Shown here in pieces: positions 4,973 to 59,875 of a DNA stretch of 64,000 bases. Source of the DNA: Clostridia bacterium (GTDB taxonomy: Bacteria; CBDUZB01; JAGLHV01); contig DAOVVV010000008.1 of assembly GCA_030637025.1 (NCBI GenBank), positions 5,802 through 69,801 on the forward strand. The letters run 5' to 3'. Every line of letters starts with the position of its first letter. The first letter of the stretch is position 1. Below the pieces are notes generated by a model. It saw only the letters and a list, made by a program, of their open reading frames with translations, made no database searches and was not told the origin of the DNA. A program made the position numbers and the translations under genes.

Positions 4973-5038
4973 GGTAGCCGCAGGCTTTAGCCTGCGTTAT
5001 CGTTGGAGATTTTACGCAGGCTAAAGCCTGCGACTACA
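4973..5038. repeat. palindromic element copy (ggtagccgcaggctttagcctgcg...cgcaggctaaagcctgcgactaca)
   Basis: Same architecture as 2553-2620. Two internal 16-bp hairpins flanked by inverted ends. Confidence 0.6.
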
Positions 5039-5109
5039 AAAACAGAAATCAGAACAGAAATATGCAGATATTTTTGACAATACTAAAGGAATATTGAAAG
5101 AGATAAAAA

Positions 5110-16783: not shown

Positions 16784-16924
16784 AGAGTTCTGCAAAATAC
16801 AATATTCTGTCATTTCGCTCTGCCTGAGGCAGATGATGCGGAATCTATAATGTTTTTAAATATCAATAGATTCCTGTTTTCGCAGGAATGACAAAAAAGA
16901 TAAAAAGCTATTTTGCAGAAGTCT
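16784..16924 (+). mobile_element. MITE-like composite repeat copy (TIRs agagttctgc / gcagaagtct)
   Basis: Same modules as 254-396. Its 3' end lies 31 nt before the 16956 ATG. Confidence 0.6.
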
Positions 16925-20627: not shown

Positions 20628-21640
20628 GAAAAAAATTAAAAATTTTAGTTTTATTTGATAGTGCCGGTTCTCCGCCACCGGACCAGAATTTCAAGGAAGC
20701 GTTAAAAACGGAAGGATGGGAAACAGAAGCAGAAGTTATTAATACTCTAAAAAAATTAAGCTATGAAGTAAGGATATTAGGAATTTATGATGATGTAAGT
20801 TTAATTATCAAAGAAGTTGAAGAGCATAAACCAGATGTAGTTTTTAATCTGGCTGAAGTTTTTTTAGGTAAAGCTCGTTTTGACAAAAATGTCCCTTCTA
20901 TTCTGGAAATGTTACCAATACCTTATACCGGTTCAGGCCCGGTAGGTATGATGTTATGTAACAACAAAGCAATTAGTAAAAAAATACTAACTTTTCACCG
21001 GATTAAAGTACCCGGTTTTTATGTGTTTCAGAGAGGAAAACGCATATGGCAACCTAAAAAATTACGCTTTCCTCTTATCGTTAAACCTTTACGAGAAGAA
21101 GCTTCTACAGGCATTGTTCAGGCTTCTTTTGTAGAAAATGAAAAGGAACTTTGTGATAGAGTCGGATTTACTCACGAACAACTTAAAATGGATGCTATTG
21201 CCGAAGAATATATTGAAGGCCGTGAATTGTATGTAAGTATTCTGGGCAGTAAAAAATTAATGGTTTTTCCTTTGCGTGAGATAAAATTTACTCAAGTAAA
21301 TGATAATGAACATAAAATAGCTACTTATAAAGCAAAATGGGATGAAGAATATCGAAAAAAATGGGGCATTAAAAATGAATTTGCCGGGCGTCTTCCTGCG
21401 GATATCCCGGAAAAAATAGAGGAAATTTGTAAAAAAGCCTACCGGGTTTTACAACTCCAGGGATATGCCAGATTTGATATAAAACTGACTCCGGAAAATG
21501 AAATTTTTATTCTGGAAGCAAATGCCAATCCTTCACTGGCCCCGGATGATGAATTTGCCTTATCTGCGGAAAAGGCAGGTATTTCTTATACGCAGTTAAT
21601 CCGGAAAATATTGTATTTTGCTTTCAAACGGAACAGATAA
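20624..21640 (+). CDS. ATP-grasp family ligase (D-alanine--D-alanine ligase-like)
   Basis: Ddl-like N-domain. The ATP-grasp motifs EEYIEGRELYVSILG and FDIKLTPENEIFILEANANP are present. Confidence 0.7.
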   Translation: MRKKLKILVLFDSAGSPPPDQNFKEALKTEGWETEAEVINTLKKLSYEVRILGIYDDVSLIIKEVEEHKPDVVFNLAEVFLGKARFDKNVPSILEMLPIPYTGSGPVGMMLCNNKAISKKILTFHRIKVPGFYVFQRGKRIWQPKKLRFPLIVKPLREEASTGIVQASFVENEKELCDRVGFTHEQLKMDAIAEEYIEGRELYVSILGSKKLMVFPLREIKFTQVNDNEHKIATYKAKWDEEYRKKWGIKNEFAGRLPADIPEKIEEICKKAYRVLQLQGYARFDIKLTPENEIFILEANANPSLAPDDEFALSAEKAGISYTQLIRKILYFAFKRNR

Positions 21641-21760: not shown

Positions 21761-22135
21761 GATAGTCCATAGACAACAAACAACAGAAAGTTATAAGTTA
21801 ATAGTTATGAGTTATAAGTTAAAAGAAAATTGAAAGACAAGAATAAAAAACAGGCACAAAGGCATCAAGGCACAGAGGCACAAAGTAAAAGACAAGACAA
21901 CAGATAGTCCATAGACAACAAACAACAGAAAGTTATAAGTTACTAGTTATGAGTTATAAGTTAAAAAAAAATTGAAAGACAAGAATAAAAGACAGGCACA
22001 AAGGCATCAAGGCACAGAGGCACAAAGTAAAAGACAAGACAACAGATAAAAGATAAAAGAAAGTTATTAGTTAATAGTTATGAGTTATAAGTTAAAGAAA
22101 TAAAAAACAAAGACAAAGACAAAAGAAAAAAGACG
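21761..22135. repeat. tandem array: two full 142-bp units (21761-21902, 21903-22044), a degenerate third, and a degenerate unit upstream
   Basis: Units are more than 95% identical. Each contains an 8-bp-periodic AGGCACAA x4 sub-repeat and a gttataagtta sub-repeat. The + strand is strongly T-depleted. Confidence 0.8.
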
Positions 22136-22145
22136 GGAGAATATA

Positions 22146-22481
22146 ATGTTTTGTCCAGAGTGTCGAGCTGAATTCATAGAGGGAATAACCGTTTGCAGTG
22201 ATTGTGGAATTACCTTAGTCGAAGAATTATCTCCCCAGCCAAAACCGGAATATCATAAATTAGTGAAAGTTTTTTCCACCGGAAAAAGTATCGAAGCGGG
22301 ATTTGTTAAATCATTGTTAGAGGCAAATGAGATTAATTGTTTCATTAAAAATATGCATTATCCTTCGCTTATACCTGTAGGAATTGCAGCTGTTCCGATA
22401 AAAATAATGGTAGAAGAAAAAGACAAAGTTAATGCGGAAGAAATTATTAATCAATATTATAAAGATTTGAAAAACGAGTAA
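22146..22481 (+). CDS. zinc-ribbon (CPEC...CSDC) protein with C-terminal DUF2007-like domain
   Basis: N-terminal CxxC-x11-CxxC. The C-terminal LVKVFSTGKSIEAGFVKSLLEANEINCFIKN resembles the DUF2007 pattern. Confidence 0.5.
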   Translation: MFCPECRAEFIEGITVCSDCGITLVEELSPQPKPEYHKLVKVFSTGKSIEAGFVKSLLEANEINCFIKNMHYPSLIPVGIAAVPIKIMVEEKDKVNAEEIINQYYKDLKNE

Positions 22482-25454: not shown

Positions 25455-26591
25455 ATGGCCTGGATTCAAAAAACTTTAGATATAAACGAAAAACTTTCAG
25501 TTTTATCACATGATTCACAATACGATCTGGCATGTTCCTGCAGTATAAATGATGATGATCGCCGGCATCGCTCAAAAGAGGACAAGTGGATATATCCGGT
25601 TACTTTTCCTAATGGCGGCCGGTCTTTTTTGTTTAAGACTTTAATTTCTAATGTATGTGTTAATGATTGTAAATATTGTCCTTTGCGTGAAGGACAGAAT
25701 ACCAGAAGATGTACACTGCAGGCATATGAACTGGTAAAAGCCTTTCTTCAGTATTATCAAAAAGGTAAAGTGATGGGGCTTTTTTTAAGTAGTGGCGTAA
25801 TGGGTAATCCCGATAAAACAATGGAGCAAATAAATAAAATTGCTCTTATTTTAAGAAAAAAACATTTTAAAGGATACATTCATCTAAAAGTTATTCCCGG
25901 TGCTTCTAATGCAGCGATAGAGGAAACTGTTTCTTTAGCCAGTGCAGTTTCAATAAATATCGAAACTGCCGGCGAAAAGAATTTTAACCAACTTTCTAAC
26001 AGCAAAAACTATTTACAGGATATTATTAGGCCGCTTAAATTAATCAGCCGGCTTACCGGAAAAGGTTCTCGTTATAGTAGAGTAAAAAAAACGACGCAAT
26101 TTGTGGTTGGTGCATCTGAAGAAACTGACCAGGAAATTATTAAATATTCCTGGAACTTATACCGGCGATTGGGTTTAAACCGTATTTATTTTAGTGCTTA
26201 TCAACGGGGTTTAGGCGAACCTGATTTACCCGGGGAGATTTCCGGTCAAAGCAATAATGATATTTTAACTCGAGAGCATCGTTTATATCAGGCGGATTGG
26301 TTAATCAGAAAATATGGTTTTACGGAAAAAGAAATTCTTTTTCAAGCTGATGGTAATTTATCATTGACTCTGGACCCCAAGGAAACTTGGGCTAAGAATC
26401 ATCCGGAATTTTTTCCGGTTGATATTAATAAAGCAGATAAGTTAAAATTACTACGGGTCCCGGGTTTAGGATTGGTTACCGTTAATTATATACTTAAATA
26501 CAGGGAAAAGGGTGGATATATTCGTTATCTGGAAAACTTAGGAAAATTAGGAAAAAGACTGATCAAGGCAAAACAGTATTTAAAAATTTAG
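25455..26591 (+). CDS. radical SAM protein with C-terminal helix-hairpin-helix (putative DNA modification/repair radical SAM family)
   Basis: CVNDCKYC (CxxxCxxC) and a C-terminal LLRVPGLGLVTVNYIL HhH. No partner gene lies adjacent. Confidence 0.65.
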   Translation: MAWIQKTLDINEKLSVLSHDSQYDLACSCSINDDDRRHRSKEDKWIYPVTFPNGGRSFLFKTLISNVCVNDCKYCPLREGQNTRRCTLQAYELVKAFLQYYQKGKVMGLFLSSGVMGNPDKTMEQINKIALILRKKHFKGYIHLKVIPGASNAAIEETVSLASAVSINIETAGEKNFNQLSNSKNYLQDIIRPLKLISRLTGKGSRYSRVKKTTQFVVGASEETDQEIIKYSWNLYRRLGLNRIYFSAYQRGLGEPDLPGEISGQSNNDILTREHRLYQADWLIRKYGFTEKEILFQADGNLSLTLDPKETWAKNHPEFFPVDINKADKLKLLRVPGLGLVTVNYILKYREKGGYIRYLENLGKLGKRLIKAKQYLKI

Positions 26592-26595
26592 ATAG

Positions 26596-26735
26596 ACTTC
26601 TGCGGAATGACACATTCTGTCATTCCGCTCCGCCTCAGGCGGATGATGCGGAATCTATAATATTCTTAAATATCAATAAATTCCTGCTTCCGCAGGAATG
26701 ACAATAAAAGGAAAAAGGTTGTTTTGCAGAACTCT
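26596..26735 (+). mobile_element. MITE-like composite repeat copy (5' TIR agacttctgc, 3' gcagaactct)
   Basis: The 5' TIR is an exact reverse complement of the canonical 3' end. Its 3' end lies 30 nt before the 26766 ATG. Confidence 0.6.
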
Positions 26736-51052: not shown

Positions 51053-51631
51053 ATGAATATACTGGCAATTAACGGTAGTCCGAAAAAAAATGGGAAGATA
51101 AGTAGAATAGTTAAGGAAATCATAAAAGGAGCATCAGAAGAAAACAATAAATGTGAAATTTTATATTTATCAGATATTAAAAACATAAATGATTGTAAGG
51201 GTTGTATGCAATGCCAGGAACAAGGAAAATGCATAATAAGAGATGATATTCTGATTGTTGAAGAGGCGATAAAAAGAAATGAAGTAATAATATTTGCTAC
51301 GCCAACACACTGGGGAAATGTTTCCGGAATAATGCTGCGAATGATAGAACGATTATTCGGTTTTTTAATCGAAGAAAAACCATTAGGATTTCCTGTTGCT
51401 AAGGCAGGAAAGGGAAAGAAGGCTATATTGGTTACTGCCTGCAGTACATCCTGGCCGTTTAATTGGATATTTAATCAATCACGAGCTTGTTTTGGCCGGT
51501 TAAAGGAAGTTTGTAAATACAGCGGCATAAAGATAATAAAAACTTTTACTTTGCCTGGAACAACAAAGATGGATAAAATACCGCAAAAATATTTAATTAA
51601 AGCTTTTATGCTCGGAAGAAAGATTAAATAA
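51053..51631 (+). CDS. iron-sulfur flavoprotein (Isf) of the NADPH-dependent FMN reductase family
   Basis: Flavodoxin-like fold with the compact CxxCxxCx5C motif (CKGCMQCQEQGKC) characteristic of Isf. Confidence 0.6.
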   Translation: MNILAINGSPKKNGKISRIVKEIIKGASEENNKCEILYLSDIKNINDCKGCMQCQEQGKCIIRDDILIVEEAIKRNEVIIFATPTHWGNVSGIMLRMIERLFGFLIEEKPLGFPVAKAGKGKKAILVTACSTSWPFNWIFNQSRACFGRLKEVCKYSGIKIIKTFTLPGTTKMDKIPQKYLIKAFMLGRKIK

Positions 51632-51697
51632 AAATATGTTTTATTTTTTTATTGACAAATGATATTAATTTAGTATCATAAAGTAAAGGAGACAAAC

Positions 51698-52099
51698 ATG
51701 ATGCTGATTAACAGGGATACAGACTATGCCGTTAGGGCCCTTTGTTTTATTGCGCAGAGTAAAAAAAACAAAGTGTCAGTTGGTGAATTAGTGAAAGAGT
51801 TAAAAATACCCAGGCCCTTTTTAAGAAAGATACTTCAAATTTTAAACAAGAAAAAAATGCTCAAATCATCCAAAGGACCACACGGTGGCTTTATCCTGGC
51901 TAAACCCGGCAATAAAATCCTTTTAACTGATTTAATGAAAATCTTCCAGGGGGTGCTAAAACTAAATAAATGTATTTTTAAAAAACAAGTTTGTCCGAAC
52001 ATGAAAACTTGTAAACTCAAAAAGAAAATTGACAAAATAGAAAAACATGTTATTTCCGAATTAAAAGGCATTACATTAGAACAGTTATCAGAAAAATAA
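51698..52099 (+). CDS. Rrf2-family transcriptional regulator with Cx6Cx5C putative Fe-S ligands
   Basis: N-terminal wHTH (DYAVRALCFIAQ...VSVGELVKELKIP) and a C-terminal CIFKKQVCPNMKTC cluster. Confidence 0.8.
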   Translation: MMLINRDTDYAVRALCFIAQSKKNKVSVGELVKELKIPRPFLRKILQILNKKKMLKSSKGPHGGFILAKPGNKILLTDLMKIFQGVLKLNKCIFKKQVCPNMKTCKLKKKIDKIEKHVISELKGITLEQLSEK

Positions 52100-52117
52100 A
52101 GATATAAAGGGATAAAA

Positions 52118-53167
52118 ATGGATACACTAAAAATTGCTTTTTTTGATACAAAACCATATGACCAAAAATTTTTTGATCTGGTAAATAGCGATTATAATTT
52201 TGAACTAAAATATTTCAAAAATCACTTAAGCAAAGAAACTGTTGAACAGGTGCAAGGATTTAACGTCGTATGTGCATTCGTTAACGATACTGTTGACAAA
52301 GATGTTATAAGGATACTAAAACAAGAAGGTGTTAAATTAATTGCTTTGCGTTGTGCCGGATATAACAACGTTGATTTAAGAGCGGCATTTAAAAATATTC
52401 ATATTATGCGCGTACCGGAATATTCTCCTTATGCAGTTGCTGAACATGCGGTAGCCTTGATGTTGGGATTAAACAGAAAAATCTATCGGGCTTATTATCG
52501 TACCCGGGATAATAATTTTAGTATCAACGGATTACTCGGTTTTGATATGCACGGCAAAACAGCAGGCATTATCGGAACAGGAAAAATCGGAAAATGTCTG
52601 ATTTCTATTCTTAAAGGCTTTGGGATGAATATTATTTGTTTTGATCTTCATCCGGATGAGTCATATGCAAAGGCTGTGGGGATTAATTATGTTCCTCTTG
52701 CTCAGCTTTATAGTCAATCGAATATTATTTCTTTACATTGTCCCTTAACCCCTCAAACCCAGTATATGATTAATCATGAAAGTATTGCCCAAATGAAAGA
52801 GGGAATAATGATTATAAATACGGGTAGGGGAAAATTGATTAAGACACAGGCATTGATAGAGGGTCTTAAAAGCGGAAAAATCGGGGGAGCGGGGCTTGAT
52901 GTATATGAGGAAGAAAGTAATTACTTTTTCGAGGACTTTTCTGCTTCAATGATCAGTGACGATGTATTAGCACGGCTACTGACTTTTTCCAATGTGCTGA
53001 TAACTTCCCATCAGGGTTTTTTTACCAAAGAAGCATTGACTAATATAGCTCAGACAACTTTTGATAATATTGTTGAATTTTTTAACGGCGGATATTTAAA
53101 AAATGAGATTTGTTATCATTGCGGAGAAACATGTATAAAAAAAGATAAAAAACGTTGTTTTGATTAA
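52118..53167 (+). CDS. ldhA: D-lactate dehydrogenase (D-2-hydroxyacid dehydrogenase, LdhA-like)
   Basis: Collinear similarity to E. coli LdhA (ALRCAGYNNVDL; RAYYRTRDNNFSINGLLGFDMHGKTAGIIGTGKIG). Extra C-terminal Cys-rich tail. Confidence 0.85.
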   Translation: MDTLKIAFFDTKPYDQKFFDLVNSDYNFELKYFKNHLSKETVEQVQGFNVVCAFVNDTVDKDVIRILKQEGVKLIALRCAGYNNVDLRAAFKNIHIMRVPEYSPYAVAEHAVALMLGLNRKIYRAYYRTRDNNFSINGLLGFDMHGKTAGIIGTGKIGKCLISILKGFGMNIICFDLHPDESYAKAVGINYVPLAQLYSQSNIISLHCPLTPQTQYMINHESIAQMKEGIMIINTGRGKLIKTQALIEGLKSGKIGGAGLDVYEEESNYFFEDFSASMISDDVLARLLTFSNVLITSHQGFFTKEALTNIAQTTFDNIVEFFNGGYLKNEICYHCGETCIKKDKKRCFD

Positions 53168-53375
53168 AATTGTAATAAAGGGTAATGTCAAAAATAAAAT
53201 GATAAATACTCAGAGAAGGGTTATAAATAAAAAAGAATTTTTTCATAATGTAGGACGGAAAGCGTATAATCTATACTTTGGATACTTCCATAAGAAAAGG
53301 TTTAATTGATAATTGGAAAGAGTATGTGTTTAAATGTTCGTTGGATTTTGATTTAGAAGGAATTATTAAATAAAA

Positions 53376-53403
53376 ACGCAGGCTAAAGCCTGCGACTACC
53401 AAA
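53376..53403. repeat. half-copy of the palindromic element (cgcaggctaaagcctgcgactacca) abutting the RBS of the 53419 gene
   Basis: The 16-bp hairpin gcaggctaaagcctgc lies 10 nt upstream of AAAGGAGG. Confidence 0.5.
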
Positions 53404-53418
53404 GAAAGGAGGAAAAGT

Positions 53419-53928
53419 ATGCAAGTGTATCGTTGTCGTGTATGTGGAGAAGTGTATATCGGAGATGAAAAACCCACAAGTTGTCCTTTTTGCGGTGCTC
53501 ATGAGGGGTATTTTGTTTTAGCTAAAGAATGGAAATTAATACATAGTGAGGTCTTATCCGATACAAGTAAAGAAAATTTAAAAAAAGCATTGGATTTGGA
53601 AATAAATAATACTAATTTTTACAAAGCCGCTTCGGAAAAAAGCAAAGATGTACATTTTTCCAGTATGTTTAAAGGTTTGTCCAAGGTGGAAAGAGAGCAT
53701 GCTTCAACTATATGTAAACATCTTAGAATAGCCAAACCGGAATCGAGTGTAGGAGCGGATAAGGCAGTTGATTCCGACCGGGCAAATATAGAAGAAGCTA
53801 ATCGCAGGGAAAAAAGTGCGGTTAAATTTTATGGGGAAGCAATTAATCAGGCACCGGAAGAAGCCATTAAAGAGTTTTTTAAAGCATTAATGCAGATAGA
53901 ATCAGACCATATAGCTTTAACCGACTAA
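53419..53928 (+). CDS. reverse rubrerythrin-like protein (N-terminal rubredoxin-like CxxC...CxxC + C-terminal ferritin-like diiron domain)
   Basis: N-terminal CRVCGEVY...CPFCGA and C-terminal E...ExxH ferritin-like helices. Confidence 0.65.
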   Translation: MQVYRCRVCGEVYIGDEKPTSCPFCGAHEGYFVLAKEWKLIHSEVLSDTSKENLKKALDLEINNTNFYKAASEKSKDVHFSSMFKGLSKVEREHASTICKHLRIAKPESSVGADKAVDSDRANIEEANRREKSAVKFYGEAINQAPEEAIKEFFKALMQIESDHIALTD

Positions 53929-53939
53929 AAATATTTAAG

Positions 53940-54091
53940 AGTTATGCAAAATACAATATTCTGCCTGCCCGCCAGTCTTTAAGGAGGGTCATTCCGCACT
54001 TGATGCGGAATCTATAATGTTTTTAAATATCAATAGATTCCTGCTTTCGCAGGAATGACAAAAAAGATAAAAAGCTATTTTGCAGAAGTTT
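53940..54091 (+). mobile_element. MITE-like composite repeat copy (TIRs agagttatgc / gcagaagttt)
   Basis: Near-identical to 254-396 and 16784-16924. Its 3' end lies 29 nt before the dfx ATG. Confidence 0.6.
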
Positions 54092-54120
54092 AAAAAATCT
54101 TTAATAAAGGAGGGAAGAAG

Positions 54121-54501
54121 ATGACTAAATTAAGAGAGCTTTACCGTTGTAATATTTGTGGAAATGTTGTGGAAATAACCCATGAAGGGGCACCGGCACT
54201 GGTATGTTGTAATCAGCCAATGGTAAAACTGGAGGCCAAAACCGAGGATACCGGAAGCGAAAAACATGTTCCGGTAATAGAAGAAATCGATGGTGGAACC
54301 ACCATAAAAGTAGGAAGTATTGCCCATCCTATGGAGGAAAAACACTATATCAAATTTATCGAAGTCCTGACCAAGGATAAAGTTTTACGGATAGAATTAA
54401 AACCCGGACAAAATCCCGAGGTTCAATCTTGTGTATCAAAAGAGGATATATTAGAAGTACGGGAATTTTGTACTGTACATGGCCTATGGAAGAATAAATA
54501 A
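54121..54501 (+). CDS. dfx: desulfoferrodoxin (2Fe superoxide reductase)
   Basis: Domain I CxxC-x15-CC (CNICGN...VCCNQPM). Domain II carries the SOR His/Cys ligands. Confidence 0.85.
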   Translation: MTKLRELYRCNICGNVVEITHEGAPALVCCNQPMVKLEAKTEDTGSEKHVPVIEEIDGGTTIKVGSIAHPMEEKHYIKFIEVLTKDKVLRIELKPGQNPEVQSCVSKEDILEVREFCTVHGLWKNK

Positions 54502-54546
54502 AAAGGCTAAAATCTTTTAACTATTAATCTAAAGGAGGAATTTAAA

Positions 54547-55122
54547 ATGGGAAGTATAAAAGGAACAAAAACAGAAAAAAATCTTTTGGCATCTTTTGCC
54601 GGAGAATCACAAGCAAGAAATCGTTATACTTATTTTTCTTCTGTCGCCAGAAAAGAAGGATATGAACAAATAGCAGCGATATTCTTAGAAACTGCGGACA
54701 ATGAAAAGGAACATGCTAAAAGATTCTTTAAATTCCTGGAAGGCGGGGAAATAGAAATTGCAGCAAGCTATCCTGCCGGAGTTATTAATGATACCGCAGC
54801 TAATCTGGAAGCTGCCGCAGCAGGGGAAAATATGGAATGGACCAAACTTTATAAAGAAGCGGAAAAAACGGCCGGAGAGGAAGGATTTGAAGAAATAGCT
54901 GATTTATTTAAAGAAATAGCTGAAGTAGAAGAAGAGCATGAAAAACGCTACCGAAAATTACTTAAAAATATAAAAGAATGCAAGGTTTTTCAAAAAGATA
55001 CCGTGGTTAAATGGAAATGCCGCAATTGTGGATATGTTCACGAAGGAAAAGAGGCCCCTCAACTATGCCCGGCTTGTGCCCATCCGCAAAGTTATTACGA
55101 ATTGCTCTGTGAAAATTATTAA
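54547..55122 (+). CDS. rbr: rubrerythrin
   Basis: N-terminal diiron four-helix bundle (ExxH x2) and a C-terminal rubredoxin domain (CRNCGY...CPAC). Confidence 0.9.
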
Positions 55123-55145
55123 AAATCTTCTCAAAGGAGAACAAA

Positions 55146-55376
55146 ATGGAGATAAAGATTTATTCTACACCAACCTGTCCTTATTGCAAAATGGCTAAAG
55201 AATATCTTTCTTCTAAAGGGATTGCTTACCAGGATTTAGATATTTCTGCTAATAATGTTGATAAGGAAGAAATGCTAAAAGTATCAGGACAAATGGGGGT
55301 TCCTGTTATCGTGATTAACAGTGAAGTAATTGTTGGATTTGACCGAGCCCGTATAGATTCTCTTATCGGTAAATAA
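55146..55376 (+). CDS. glutaredoxin-like / NrdH-like small redoxin
   Basis: CPYC active site in a 76-aa thioredoxin fold. Confidence 0.7.
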   Translation: MEIKIYSTPTCPYCKMAKEYLSSKGIAYQDLDISANNVDKEEMLKVSGQMGVPVIVINSEVIVGFDRARIDSLIGK

Positions 55377-55391
55377 AAAGAGGATATTTTT

Positions 55392-56306
55392 ATGAGTAAA
55401 ATTTATGATTTAATAATTTTAGGAGCAGGTCCTGCCGGAATAACTGCTGCGGTGTATGCAGCAAGAAAGAAATTAGATTTTTTGTTAATTACTTTGGATA
55501 TCGGCGGTCAGGCTGCGTTAAGCGGATATATTAAAAATTATACCGGTTATCAGTTTATTAGCGGACCGGAACTTGCTTTAAAATTTCAGGAACATATGAA
55601 TTCTTTTGCAATAGAAATAAAAATGCCGGAAAGAGTAAAGGAAATAAAACAGGAAAATAATTTAATAAAAACAATCACCGAAAAGGAAACGTATGGGTCA
55701 AAAACTCTCATTGTGGCTACCGGAAAACGGTCAAGGGAATTAAATGTAGAAGGAGAAAAGGAGTTTAAAAACAAAGGAGTTACTTATTGTGCTACTTGCG
55801 ACGGACCTATATTTAAAGAAAAAAATGTAGCGATAATCGGGGGGGGAAACTCCGGGCTGGATGCCGCCCTGCAAATGATGAAAATTTCTCCCAAAGTATA
55901 TTTAATTAATGCCACAGCCCAACTTACCGGTGATGAGGTAATGATAGAAAAAGTAAAAGAAGCCGATAATGTGGAAATATGGAATAATTCTCAAGTAAAG
56001 AAAATTTACGGGAATGTTTTTGTAAGAGGAATAGAAATAGATAAAGAAGGTAAATTATACAATTTTAATGTAGAAGGCATTTTTGTAGAAATTGGTTTGA
56101 TTCCCAGCTCGGAATTTGCTAATTGTCTAAAACAAAATCAGTGGAAAGAAATACTTATTGATTGTTATAATAAAACAAGTATAGAGGGTATTTTCGCTGC
56201 AGGAGATGTGACTAATGTACCGGAAAAACAAATTATTATTGCTTGCGGCGAAGGTTCTAAATCTTGTTTGTCAGCCTTTAAATATTTATCAACCCGTAAA
56301 TTCTAG
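55392..56306 (+). CDS. thioredoxin reductase-like FAD/NAD(P) disulfide oxidoreductase
   Basis: GAGPAG FAD motif, CATC redox-active disulfide, GGGNSG NADPH motif. Confidence 0.75.
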   Translation: MSKIYDLIILGAGPAGITAAVYAARKKLDFLLITLDIGGQAALSGYIKNYTGYQFISGPELALKFQEHMNSFAIEIKMPERVKEIKQENNLIKTITEKETYGSKTLIVATGKRSRELNVEGEKEFKNKGVTYCATCDGPIFKEKNVAIIGGGNSGLDAALQMMKISPKVYLINATAQLTGDEVMIEKVKEADNVEIWNNSQVKKIYGNVFVRGIEIDKEGKLYNFNVEGIFVEIGLIPSSEFANCLKQNQWKEILIDCYNKTSIEGIFAAGDVTNVPEKQIIIACGEGSKSCLSAFKYLSTRKF

Positions 56307-56314
56307 AGGATAAT

Positions 56315-57358
56315 ATGCAAATTATCTTAAATATTATTAAAGAAGCATATTTTTTATTAAACCAAATGTCAGTATATCTGGTTTTTGGTTTTTTATTTGC
56401 CGGGATTTTACATATTTTTATACGAGAAGAAATAATTGCTAAACATCTGGGTAAAAATAATTTTCTGTCGGTAATAAAAGCATCTCTATTTGGTATTCCT
56501 TTACCTCTTTGCTCCTGTGGGGTAATTCCTGCAGCGTTGTCTTTACGCAAAAGCGGAGCAAGCAGGGGGGCGGTACTTTCTTTTTTGATTTCCACTCCCA
56601 CCACCGGAATTGATTCTATTTTTGCTACCTACGCTTTGCTGGGTGGAGTTTTTACTGTTTATCGGGTATTGGCTTCTTTTGTCATTGCCGTATTTGCCGG
56701 GATATTGGCCAATTTATTTTTAAAAAAAGAAGAGCCCCCTTTTAATTCCAGCGATAATAAATATAAGTGCAAACTTTGTCATAATAATGAGCATTCTCCG
56801 TTAAAACATAGTATTTCAAAGAGAATTAAAGGTGTTTTTACTTACGCCTTTGGCGATCTTTTAGGGGATGTTAGTAAATGGCTGCTAATCGGTATTTTAA
56901 TTGGCGGAATAATATCATATCTTATTCCGGAAACATTGGTTATGCGTTATCTTGGCTCCGGATGGCAATCGATATTTATTATGCTTTTGGTGGGAATACC
57001 AATGTATGTATGTTCTTCCGGTTCCCTGCCTATAGCAGCAGCATTAATCTTAAAAGGAATGAACCCCGGAGCAGCCTTTGTCTTTCTTTTAGCCGGTCCG
57101 GCTACAAATTCAGTAGCTCTCACCGTTATTGCTAATCAGTTTGGAAAAAAAACTGTTTTTATTTTTTTAATTTCAATTATCGGATGCGGGCTGGGATTGG
57201 GTTTTTTGTTAAATTATGTATGGGGTTTTTTAAATATTGATATCACCCAACACATAGCACAGCATACTGCTATGATTCCTTTCTGGATGAGCACCATAGC
57301 CAGTATTTTTTTATTATCAGGTATGTTATTTAATATCATCAAACAAAAAAAACAATAA
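56315..57358 (+). CDS. permease of the DUF318/YraQ (ArsP-like) family with CSCG motif
   Basis: Eight or more TM segments. PLCSCGVIPAALSL is characteristic of the family. Confidence 0.55.
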   Translation: MQIILNIIKEAYFLLNQMSVYLVFGFLFAGILHIFIREEIIAKHLGKNNFLSVIKASLFGIPLPLCSCGVIPAALSLRKSGASRGAVLSFLISTPTTGIDSIFATYALLGGVFTVYRVLASFVIAVFAGILANLFLKKEEPPFNSSDNKYKCKLCHNNEHSPLKHSISKRIKGVFTYAFGDLLGDVSKWLLIGILIGGIISYLIPETLVMRYLGSGWQSIFIMLLVGIPMYVCSSGSLPIAAALILKGMNPGAAFVFLLAGPATNSVALTVIANQFGKKTVFIFLISIIGCGLGLGFLLNYVWGFLNIDITQHIAQHTAMIPFWMSTIASIFLLSGMLFNIIKQKKQ

Positions 57359-57434
57359 TTTTATTAATTGTATTGCAAACAATAACAAAAGCTTGTATAA
57401 TGCACTACATGTAAAAAAAAAGGAAAATCTAATT

Positions 57435-57506
57435 ATGATGGTAATTATTGTATTAATATTAATTATTATTGGGATCATTTTGTTTTTACAACAAAAGAAG
57501 GATTAG
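57435..57506 (+). CDS. candidate 23-aa hydrophobic micropeptide (MMVIIVLILIIIGIILFLQQKKD)
   Basis: AAGGAAAA RBS 9 nt upstream and a single TM helix. Upstream of nox. Confidence 0.2.
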   Translation: MMVIIVLILIIIGIILFLQQKKD

Positions 57507-57575
57507 CTTTTTCCCTGGCATTCTCATATTTATTTTTAAATTTTAAATAAAATAATAGGAAGGAGTAAATTGTAG

Positions 57576-58922
57576 ATGCGTAAAGAAACAGATGTTTTAG
57601 TCTTAGGAGGAGGTCCTGCCGGAATAATAAGCGCGGTTACTGCCCGAAAATATTATCCCAACAAGAAAATTGTAGTAATCAAAAGTATAGAAAAAGGCGT
57701 TGTCCCCTGTGGTATTCCCTATATGTTTTCTACCTTAAAAAATCCGGAAGAAAATAAACTGGGTAATGCCGCACTGGAAAAAAACAATGTTGAAGTATTC
57801 GTAGATGAAGCGGTTAAAATAGAACGCAAAGATAGAGTTGTTACTACTAAAAAGAAAGATACCTATCATTATGAAAAATTAATTTTAGCAGTTGGTTCAG
57901 ACCCGATTGTACCACCTATTCCCGGTATTGATAAAAAGGGTATTTATCCTGTGTATAAAGAAATGGATTATCTTAAAAATGCTGTGGAAACTTTTAAAAA
58001 AGCAAAAAATATTTTAGTCCTGGGTGGGGGATTTATCGGCATAGAATTTGCTGATGAATTGGCTAAATTAGATGGAGTTAATGTTTGCTTAGCAGAAATG
58101 TTACCCGATTTATTAAATAATTCTTTTGATAGCGAATTTTCTGAATTAGTAGAGGAGAAGTTAAAAGCAAACGGGGTAAAAGTATTGACTAATGTAAAGG
58201 TGGAAGGTTTTTTAGGCAATGACGCAGTAGAAAAGGTTAAATTATCTAATGGGAGCGAAATAGCCGTTGATTGTGTTGTTTTAGGCATTGGGGCCTTTCC
58301 CAATACAAAAATAGCTAACGAAGCAAACTTAAGATTGGGTATGGGTAAAGGAATATGGGTAGATGAATATATGAGAACGGTAGATTCAAATATTTTTGCA
58401 GTAGGGGATTGTGCCGGAAAAAGAGATTTTTTTACGCGCAAAGATGCTCCGGTAATGCTTGCTTCAACCGCAACTGCAGAAGCCAGGATCGCAGGCTCGA
58501 ATCTCTATCAATTAAAAGTTGTTCGTGAAATTAAAGGAACAATTGCTATATATTCAACGTATATCAATGATTTAGCCTTAGCTTCAGCCGGCCTTACCGA
58601 AAATAATGCCAGAAAAGAAGGTTTTGAAATTGTAGTGGGTATGGCTAATAGCGTTGATAAACACCCGGCTACTATGCCTGATGCAAGTAAACTGAAAGTC
58701 AAATTGATTTTTTCCAGACAATCGGGAATTATAATGGGTGGACAGGTTGCCGGAGGAATATCCTGTGGTGAAATAATTAATATTATTGGAATAGCAATAC
58801 AAAAAAGGATTTCTTTAACCGAATTGGAAACATTACAAATGGCTACTCATCCTTGTTTAACCAGTGCCCCGACGATGTATCCGCTGGTATTAGCTGCCCA
58901 GGATGCAACAAGCAAAATTTAA
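57576..58922 (+). CDS. NADH oxidase / CoA-disulfide reductase family flavoprotein
   Basis: Active-site Cys in VVPCGIPY. FAD and NAD Rossmann motifs. C-terminal dimerisation domain. Confidence 0.8.
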   Translation: MRKETDVLVLGGGPAGIISAVTARKYYPNKKIVVIKSIEKGVVPCGIPYMFSTLKNPEENKLGNAALEKNNVEVFVDEAVKIERKDRVVTTKKKDTYHYEKLILAVGSDPIVPPIPGIDKKGIYPVYKEMDYLKNAVETFKKAKNILVLGGGFIGIEFADELAKLDGVNVCLAEMLPDLLNNSFDSEFSELVEEKLKANGVKVLTNVKVEGFLGNDAVEKVKLSNGSEIAVDCVVLGIGAFPNTKIANEANLRLGMGKGIWVDEYMRTVDSNIFAVGDCAGKRDFFTRKDAPVMLASTATAEARIAGSNLYQLKVVREIKGTIAIYSTYINDLALASAGLTENNARKEGFEIVVGMANSVDKHPATMPDASKLKVKLIFSRQSGIIMGGQVAGGISCGEIINIIGIAIQKRISLTELETLQMATHPCLTSAPTMYPLVLAAQDATSKI

Positions 58923-59740: not shown

Positions 59741-59875
59741 ATGCATAATCAAGCTTATATGATGGGCGGATTTATGATCATTGTATGGTGGGCAGTTTTT
59801 ACTTGGTTGGTCATATTTACTATAATGGTTGTTAAGAAATTAGATAAAATTGTTAAGTTACTTGAAAAAAAATAA
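59741..59875 (+). CDS. small membrane protein (44 aa)
   Basis: RBS aagaagggggtg and a single TM helix. Followed by a large hairpin. Confidence 0.3.
   Translation: MHNQAYMMGGFMIIVWWAVFTWLVIFTIMVVKKLDKIVKLLEKK

Follow-up and report, generated by a model that had tools for sequence, protein, structure and literature searches.

A predicted iron-sulfur Rrf2 regulator and its near-invariant putative operator at the head of an oxygen-defence gene cluster in Omnitrophota-type DNA

NsrR is the [4Fe-4S] nitric oxide (NO)-sensing Rrf2 repressor of Streptomyces coelicolor, Bacillus and enterobacteria, and it shares its fold with RirA, IscR (Cys3His ligand set) and RsrR (Cys2 plus Glu/His). PerR belongs to the unrelated Fur family and senses peroxide by metal-catalysed oxidation of histidine. 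In the PerR regulon of strictly anaerobic clostridia (C. acetobutylicum; C. difficile rbr-perR-sor), reverse rubrerythrin, desulfoferrodoxin/superoxide reductase (SOR) and rubrerythrin make up a defence kit that is held silent by a metal-dependent repressor whose gene lies within the cluster or next to it (10.1101/2024.09.17.613384; PMC8546684). Here, we describe the same kit behind an Rrf2 regulator with a putative Cys3Asp site, located in a 64-kb stretch of metagenomic DNA (contig DAOVVV010000008.1, positions 5,802 to 69,801; this whole stretch is referred to as the window). Functionally, the regulator has its analogues in clostridial PerR and, where hcp is concerned, in HcpR/NsrR (PMC1274295; 10.1101/2024.09.17.613384). 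The regulator and the DNA that it is predicted to recognise are:

51698–52099, + strand: Rrf2-family regulator of 133 residues (PF02082, 98.3 bits with a cut-off of 30; TIGR00738, 98.9 with a cut-off of 73.3)
51652–51679, + strand: sigma-70-type promoter TTGACA-16-TATCAT of the rrf2 operon, the best promoter match in the region (11/12)
51658–51680, no strand assigned: putative 23-bp palindromic operator AATGATAT-TAATTTA-GTATCATA, which overlaps the promoter spacer and the -10 box

Family membership of the regulator is established by both the Pfam and TIGRFAM cut-offs and by its fold. The AlphaFold2 model (pLDDT 83.8) is an Rrf2 fold that matches the structures of RsrR, CymR, IscR and NsrR with TM-scores of 0.7–0.83; the top matches are RsrR, CymR and IscR (0.7–0.8), with which, as with RirA, it shares the dimeric winged-helix architecture. 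The cysteine loop is modelled with low confidence (block pLDDT of 57). It carries the motif C-IFKKQV-C-PNMKT-C, i.e. Cx6Cx5C, which the first-pass annotation of this DNA had already read in the sequence and which orthologues conserve. In an alignment of 25 of them, D9, C99 and C105 are present in all and C92 in 24, and the helix that reads the DNA, PFLRKILQ, shows no variation. A profile alignment to the NsrR structure places D9, C92, C99 and C105 on D8, C93, C99 and C105 of Streptomyces (Sc) NsrR, which we take to be the four ligands of its [4Fe-4S] cluster. The protein has the residues that mark the Fe-S subgroup of the family, namely three cysteines before the dimerisation helix and a fourth ligand, and, judged by sequence, it is probably an Fe-S-type sensor whose cluster would control DNA binding.

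The likeness to NsrR has limits. The cysteine spacing is Cx5Cx5C in NsrR, the identity to NsrR structures is 17–19%, and the identity to any solved Rrf2 member is at most 24%, RsrR, IscR and RirA having other operators and regulons as well. The regulator scores below all NCBIfam equivalogs: NsrR (NF008240, 53 bits versus a cut-off of 182), IscR (54 versus 207.55), RirA (64 versus 193), the SUF regulator (69 versus 110.65), CymR (31 versus 195) and HypR (41 versus 180). It would work like an NsrR-type sensor, yet it is a member of no named subfamily.

The nearest named relatives of the regulator are almost all found in metagenome-assembled genomes (MAGs) of Candidatus Omnitrophota. The comparison set contains 80 genomic loci with Rrf2 orthologues (57–83% identity) and three more from exact-protein look-ups, amounting to 83 loci and 1.18 Mb (individual loci carry L numbers below). 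A near-invariant sequence, CTTGACAAATGATACTAATATGGTATCATTA, occurs within 130 nt upstream of the Rrf2 orthologue in 50 of 79 upstream regions. In this layout, the -35 hexamer is directly followed by a 23-bp palindrome (family consensus AATGATAC-N7-GTATCATT, with arms ATGATAC and GTATCAT), the right arm of which contains the -10 hexamer, while the left arm lies inside the promoter spacer and is kept in 46–47 of 47 sites. A position weight matrix (PWM) scan of the 83 loci finds exactly one operator in 80 of them, each heading the Rrf2 transcription unit and sometimes placed 150–2500 nt upstream of rrf2 where other genes come first. The same motif is missing from 477 kb of control loci (nox-orthologue loci). 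In the 64-kb window, the site at 51658–51680 is the only operator: no other PWM match reaches 8 bits, and a regular-expression search with three mismatches likewise returned no second site.

The regulator and the palindrome are paired, with one site each in 80 of the 83 loci, and the dyad lies over the regulator's own core promoter, as in autoregulated repressor–operator systems. We predict that the palindrome is the operator bound by this Rrf2 subfamily. Since it covers the spacer and the -10 box of a near-consensus promoter, binding would repress by occlusion and the regulator would control its own synthesis. Similar to the NsrR operator, it is a dyad of about 23 bp that begins with ATG, ends with CAT and overlaps a promoter, but its sequence, ATGATAC-N7-GTATCAT, differs from the NsrR consensus gATGyAT-N5-ATrCATc (PMC1274295).

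The stretch between the operator and the start codon varies among relatives. In the window, the leader of rrf2 measures 18 nt and includes the Shine-Dalgarno (SD) sequence AAGGAG. In about ten species (L017, L030, L031, L039, L051, L063, L064, L075, L079, L089), the Rrf2 ATG lies 6–7 nt after the -10 box, which implies leaderless mRNAs. In about 20 species (among them L020, L028, L029, L033, L034, L043, L056, L066, L069, L072, L081, L083, L084 and L088), a tiny conserved ORF of about 25–27 residues, MDITI[KR]YMLRPVAHCKEGCSxLSWA, ending in TGA or RR-stop, separates the operator from rrf2 and is located about 130 nt ahead of the Rrf2 start codon; the window does not have it. It is followed by a nucleotide-conserved hairpin-like motif, GGGCA-TGACGTTAAAC-TGCCC, with apparent compensatory changes (AGGCA..TGCCT in L023), and in L087 this motif is kept without the tiny ORF. 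The ORF and the motif might act as a leader peptide or as an RNA element.

The window genes that follow the promoter on the same strand, up to the permease, are:

52118–53167, + strand: D-isomer-specific 2-hydroxyacid dehydrogenase, LdhA-like (PF02826, PF00389)
53419–53928, + strand: reverse-rubrerythrin-like protein, revRbr (PF21349, residues 4–32; PF02915, residues 52–164)
54121–54501, + strand: desulfoferrodoxin (2Fe superoxide reductase), dfx (TIGR00320, 166.7 with a cut-off of 146.9; both domains present, PF06397 and PF01880)
54547–55122, + strand: rubrerythrin (NF045767, 307.6 with a cut-off of 200)
55146–55376, + strand: YruB-family glutaredoxin (Grx)-like protein with CPYC (TIGR02196, 103 with a cut-off of 88.55)
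55392–56306, + strand: flavoprotein disulfide reductase with CATC, similar to low-Mr thioredoxin reductase (TrxR) and the AhpF C-terminus (PF07992)
56315–57358, + strand: ArsP_1 permease with CSCG, SO_0444 Cu/Zn efflux family (NF033936, 387.1 with a cut-off of 300; PF03773)

All ten + strand ORFs named in the first-pass annotation are present, and its reverse rubrerythrin, dfx, rubrerythrin and CPYC redoxin agree with Pfam and NCBIfam. Its names ldhA, TrxR and nox hold at the family level and go too far beyond it, since all three proteins score below every NCBIfam equivalog cut-off, while its CSCG permease, an ArsP_1 protein, is more exactly an SO_0444-type Cu/Zn efflux transporter. For the LdhA-like protein, only the 2-Hacid_dh superfamily is supported (198 versus 356 for the D-lactate dehydrogenase model NF006374, 187 versus 579 for NF009127). 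Only in the window clade does its gene come second in the operon. Its C-terminus (approximately 53110–53164) forms a Cys-rich tail, CYHCGETCIKKDKKRC (CxxCxxxCx7C), which is kept in L007, L010 and L011 and may be a metal or redox site. The reverse rubrerythrin has an N-terminal rubredoxin-like Cys4 site (CxxC...CxxC) and a C-terminal diiron four-helix domain with the ExxH motifs EREH and ESDH, its Rubrerythrin-domain score being modest (38 bits); the gene is present in L011 and absent from L007. The TrxR-like reductase, which fails the TIGR01292 cut-off (281.6 versus 343.45) and matches the C-terminal half of AhpF best, is the probable partner of the adjacent Grx-like protein, and the pair is seen again in related operons. 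Clostridium pasteurianum Cp34/Cp9 and the Thermotoga Grx-like/TrxR system have a similar adjacent pair, a YruB-type CPYC Grx-like protein and a CATC low-Mr TrxR/AhpF-C-like reductase, in an anaerobe's oxidative-stress cluster, but the present island lacks a peroxiredoxin partner. The ArsP_1 permease is the final gene of the tightly spaced string, and YHS-ArsP_1 genes often flank Rrf2 orthologues. Taken by its enzymes, the cluster is an ordinary defence set of an anaerobe against O2 and reactive oxygen species (ROS).

The gaps from rrf2 to the permease measure 18, 251, 192, 45, 23, 15 and 8 nt. In the sister species L011, the Rrf2 protein of which is 82% identical, the corresponding order is ldhA–24 nt–revRbr–30 nt–dfx and there is no repeat, and in L007, which has no revRbr, ldhA and dfx are 33 nt apart. 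The spacing in these relatives is operon-like, and the L011 gaps show that the two long spacers of the window, ancestrally 24–30 nt, grew when elements inserted between the genes of one operon; the insertions account for the length of the spacers, and not the length for the insertions. The inserted elements are:

53181–53400: 220-nt lineage-specific insertion in the ldhA–revRbr spacer, its 3' end formed by a hairpin repeat; missing from L011
53376–53403: hairpin repeat module CGCAGGC-TAAA-GCCTGCG plus ACTACC, one arm of a two-hairpin palindromic element
53932–54090: 159-nt element resembling a miniature inverted-repeat transposable element (MITE), with terminal inverted repeats (TIRs) and internal hairpin modules; empty site in L011

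To define the genes under the operator in relatives, same-strand downstream gene strings were called, their proteins were clustered and large clusters were named by Pfam, with independent annotation available at three loci. Orthologous regulators in about 75 species head same-strand strings rich in detoxification families. The families and the number of loci are:

78-residue zinc-ribbon protein: 37
FrdX-like ferredoxin: 32
hybrid-cluster protein (HCP): 27
FNR-type reductase: 23
SOR/desulfoferrodoxin: 22–23
flavodiiron protein (FDP): 19
rubredoxin (Rd): 18
NifU: 14
rubrerythrin-like: 14
PNPOx-like: 13
ferritin: 11
rubrerythrin (Rbr): 10–11
Grx-like: 10–11
Tpx: 9–10
hemerythrin/DUF438: 9
TrxR-like: 8–10

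Where the string has three or more genes, at least one O2/NO-detoxification family is included in 48 of 59 cases, and of the 29 loci in which 8 kb or more flank the operator on each side, 26 have such families downstream of it and four have them upstream. The earlier reading of an Fe-S-type Rrf2 protein at the head of an oxygen/ROS-defence cluster thus extends to linkage throughout the phylum. The relatives' cargo resembles that of NsrR in that it includes genes typically targeted by NsrR or HcpR, namely hcp and those for an hcr-like reductase, flavodiiron protein and hemerythrin/RIC-like proteins (PMC1274295). Given hcp, frdX, FDP and hemerythrin genes in relatives, NO may be the signal just as well as O2 (compare PMC1274295). 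Unlike NsrR, the regulator apparently has one local target that includes its own gene, and the cargo in the window consists of O2/ROS enzymes with no hmp or hcp. The two commonest partners, neither of which is present in the window, are a 78-residue Cys-rich zinc-ribbon protein without a Pfam family and the FrdX-like protein, which is 278 residues long and has an N-terminal 2x[4Fe-4S] domain; they are encoded right after Rrf2 (e.g. L025 3130–3366, L083 10409–11245).

We regard it as fairly probable that an NsrR-like Fe-S repressor controls a single operon of a Candidatus Omnitrophota bacterium, reaching from the promoter to the permease (51652–57358; genes 51698–57358), in the order rrf2, LdhA-like dehydrogenase, reverse rubrerythrin, desulfoferrodoxin, rubrerythrin, Grx-like protein, TrxR-like reductase and SO_0444-type permease. 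The operon would be transcribed from the one near-consensus promoter, overlapped by the operator of the Rrf2 product of its first gene. Under anoxia, the holo-dimer would sit on the operator and block RNA polymerase; O2, ROS or NO would damage the cluster, Rrf2 would leave the DNA and the whole operon, rrf2 included, would be derepressed. The near-invariance of promoter and palindrome next to Rrf2 proteins that are only 58–83% identical counts in favour of this operator model.

Several points weigh against this model. With the NsrR, IscR, RirA and SUF-regulator cut-offs missed and identities of 24% or less, the analogy to NsrR is weak at the sequence level. The binding of a cluster, its type and the form of the protein that binds DNA are inferred, as are repression by the holo-form and the identity of the signal. 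The count of a single operator covers 64 kb of the genome, and further operators elsewhere are possible. The gene calls in the related operons come from a home-made ORF caller. A promoter-like site inside the 220-nt insertion (53242–53270, 10/12) is the one means by which revRbr and the genes after it might have escaped Rrf2 control in this species; the number of promoter-like sites in the region is close to that of shuffled sequence (41 versus 37.4), and this one is no better than chance matches. Finally, related operons also contain NifU, ferritin, VIT1 and metal permeases, with which a signal of iron or Fe-S status fits equally well.

The last point leads to the best-surviving alternative, which we nevertheless consider unlikely: that Rrf2 reports iron or Fe-S status in the manner of IscR, RirA or the SUF regulator, and that the operon serves metal homeostasis, with the detoxification genes as iron-containing clients. 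The best partial NCBIfam matches of the regulator are indeed to the SUF regulator (69 bits) and RirA (64 bits), but both are far below cut-off. NifU, ferritin, VIT1, YHS-ArsP_1, Zip, FeoAB and CbiMQO occur in related operons or their flanks and the last gene of the window operon encodes a Cu/Zn efflux permease, yet isc and suf biosynthesis genes are absent from the operons and the main cargo is HCP, FDP, SOR, Rd, Rbr, Tpx and Grx/TrxR. Moreover, a sensor that works by cluster occupancy would answer both kinds of signal anyway.

A second alternative, to which we give little credence, takes the conserved sequence as a strong promoter only, with an incidental palindrome and an Rrf2 protein that regulates distant genes or is not autoregulated. 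Promoter function does explain part of the conservation, the right arm containing the -10 box, but promoter spacers are not normally conserved, and here ATGATAC is invariant and mirrors GTATCAT. The motif is found solely beside this Rrf2 subfamily, in which the DNA-reading helix does not vary, and the dyad, at 23 bp, is as long as the operator fragment in a solved NsrR structure (PDB 7b0c title).

Least credible of all is the proposal of the first-pass annotation that Rrf2 binds separately before ldhA, revRbr and dfx and that the leaders of the most inducible genes contain, and are perhaps tuned by, the repeats: repeats do lie directly upstream of revRbr and dfx and a promoter-like hexamer pair does lie inside the 220-nt insertion, but 51658 is the start of the only operator-like sequence of at least 8 bits in the window, the rrf2–ldhA gap is 18 nt, the L011 junctions of 24 and 30 nt have no repeat and identify the supposed leaders as intercistronic spacers of one operon, promoter-like sites occur at their shuffled frequency, and repeat modules are present in 12 of the 20 window spacers of at least 100 nt, so that finding them in two of the three long spacers of the island matches the background rate and a ranking of the genes by inducibility has no basis in sequence.

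The single-operator model leaves the repeats as selfish lineage-specific insertions of a genome-wide repeat family, not regulator targets, which may possibly affect mRNA processing or stability. All repeat modules are intergenic. The hairpin, GCAGGCTAAAGCCTGC (53378–53393), belongs to a family with five loci in the window, versus 0.22 expected by chance, and a complete two-arm copy is found at 4973–5042. As had been described, the hairpin abuts the revRbr ribosome-binding site (it stops 2 nt before the SD), and the MITE ends 29 nt before the dfx ATG. The hairpin folds to -14.3 kcal/mol and leaves the SD unpaired. There is no U-tract after it on the + strand, which, together with the unpaired SD, makes read-through plausible; as a terminator between ldhA and revRbr, the hairpin (53377–53394) was rejected, the T-run being on the - strand only. 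The 100 nt that end in the hairpin repeat (53304–53406) have a counterpart, about 82% identical, in L007 (3462–3565), in a spacer that is unrelated, and the stem there shows a compensatory change from CAGGC/GCCTG to CCGCC/GGCGG. The change points to selection for structure, or else to hairpin modules that can be exchanged. A 31-residue ORF in the 220-nt insertion (53278–53373) was also discarded: by our own reading of the alignment, its L007 copy differs only non-synonymously, and coding is unsupported.

The MITE-like element has the attributes of its class: it is short and non-coding, it has TIRs at 53938–53953 and 54076–54091 (AGAGTTATGCAAAATA and AAACTTCTGCAAAATA, with termini AGAGTTCTGCAAAATA), it is flanked by a TAAAAA target duplication (53926–53931 and 54091–54096) that takes in the revRbr stop codon, it occurs in multiple copies and its site is empty in a relative. 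Sister copies at 253–396, 16784–16924 and 26590–26735, each with its own flanking duplication, bring the number of full copies to at least four. These share common termini and differ in their internal hairpin modules, and the duplications appear to vary from about 17 nt (AAAACCAAAAAAAATTA) through about 10 nt (TGTGAAGTTA) and about 8 nt (TAAAAATT) to 6 nt (TAAAAA), which would be an unusual trait in a cut-and-paste transposon. Within the 64-kb window, no gene for a transposase was noted and none was identified as cognate, no test having been aimed at an autonomous transposon. Known elements of this kind (Neisseria Correia elements; enterobacterial repetitive extragenic palindromes, REP, and bacterial interspersed mosaic elements, BIME) are likewise short, non-coding, strictly intergenic and present in many copies, with TIRs, target duplications, stable hairpins and insertion between co-transcribed genes. 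The elements of the window differ in their modular, interchangeable hairpins within common termini, in duplications that seem to range over 6–17 nt and in having no sequence relation to named families; at gathering thresholds, Rfam gave no match in the 64 kb, for hairpins and leaders alike. An apparent MITE polymorphism between contigs of the same species was rejected, as the extra 159 nt in L002 (18154–18253) is a run of N with duplicated flanks, i.e. a scaffolding gap.

With regard to its origin, several metagenome assemblies of one study contain the DNA of the window with an identity above 99.6%. Several MAGs that bear the locus (L012 JAUVLC010000011.1, L014, L018, L015, L019 and others) are labelled Clostridia, Planctomycetales, Atribacterota or Aminicenantes, and their genes are 77–94% identical to those of the Omnitrophota-type window. 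The discordant labels are probably due to mis-binning or mis-classification in public records. Omnitrophota are widespread, uncultured and mostly anaerobic bacteria, and to our knowledge nothing is known experimentally about their gene regulation. The literature searched contains no description of an Rrf2 regulator of rubrerythrin, dfx or SOR genes, nor of oxidative-stress regulation in Omnitrophota.

What the comparison adds is a previously undescribed regulator–operator pair conserved across an uncultured phylum, a conclusion well supported by sequence comparison. The pair, near-invariant in about 80 species, offers a testable handle in the form of one protein and one 23-bp site, and the genomic linkage defines the phylum's gene set against oxygen and NO, the 78-residue zinc-ribbon and FrdX-like partners included. 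For the window itself, the outcome is mainly corrective: an ordinary operon, selfish repeats and the rrf2 promoter as the predicted Rrf2 target. On a broader proposal our opinion is evenly divided, namely that this subfamily (Cys-x6-Cys-x5-Cys plus Asp) is the dedicated O2/NO-stress switch of Omnitrophota and a few neighbouring uncultured lineages, in which one near-invariant 23-bp operator fused to a consensus promoter, often with a leaderless mRNA, drives a variable detoxification operon, split here by MITE/REP insertions that may alter relative expression. If this is true, the switch would be a third regulatory solution for oxidative stress in anaerobes, beside PerR and HcpR/NsrR.

Downstream of the permease, after a gap of 217 nt, lies a neighbouring, independently promoted unit:

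57373–57401, + strand: promoter TTGCAA-17-TATAAT for the small ORF and nox (10/12)
57435–57506, + strand: 23-residue hydrophobic ORF MMVIIVLILIIIGIILFLQQKKD
57576–58922, + strand: Nox/CoADR-family flavoprotein with the single-Cys motif VVPCGIP (PF07992, PF02852)

The nox product has the family-level fold and the single cysteine and scores below the equivalog cut-offs (230.5 versus 578.8 for CoADR, 185.9 versus 600 for Nox). The inclusion of nox in the regulated part of the island could not be upheld: it has its own conserved promoter, and no Rrf2 operator was found near it in the window or within 3 kb on either side of 80 nox orthologues. The promoter and the small ORF are kept in L007, although the gene upstream there encodes an [FeFe]-hydrogenase. 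The L007 ORF, MIMIVVLILVIIGVMLLLRQKDNK, has 24 residues and a GAGGAG ahead; frame, hydrophobic core and SD are conserved, and the DNA directly after it is poorly conserved and contains an indel. By a hand count, the two versions differ by about six synonymous changes and about nine conservative replacements, a comparison of two species that cannot prove coding. The 23-residue ORF, present as first reported, was not found upstream of 76 more distant nox orthologues; it was rejected as a widespread gene, being confined to the window clade (the window and L007/L012), and is a reasonable candidate for a clade-restricted micropeptide.

A further gene of the same theme lies just upstream of the operator, outside the regulated unit:

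51053–51631, + strand: flavodoxin_2/FMN_red flavoprotein with CxxCxxCx5C (Pfam; motif CKGCMQCQEQGKC read from the ORF translation)

It presumably resembles iron-sulfur flavoproteins (Isf-like) and is syntenic in loci L007 and L010. Downstream of nox, a 44-residue hydrophobic ORF, MHNQAYMMGGFMIIVWWAVFTWLVIFTIMVVKKLDKIVKLLEKK, at 59741–59875, with GAAGGGGG ahead, has been annotated as a gene in several public assemblies of the contig and is a second small membrane-protein candidate. Elsewhere in the window, two tandem copies (98% identical) of a 142-nt unit with AGTTATAAGTTA-type sub-repeats, and a partial third copy, occupy 21761–22100, in a 505-nt spacer between an ORF that ends at 21640 and one that starts at 22146.

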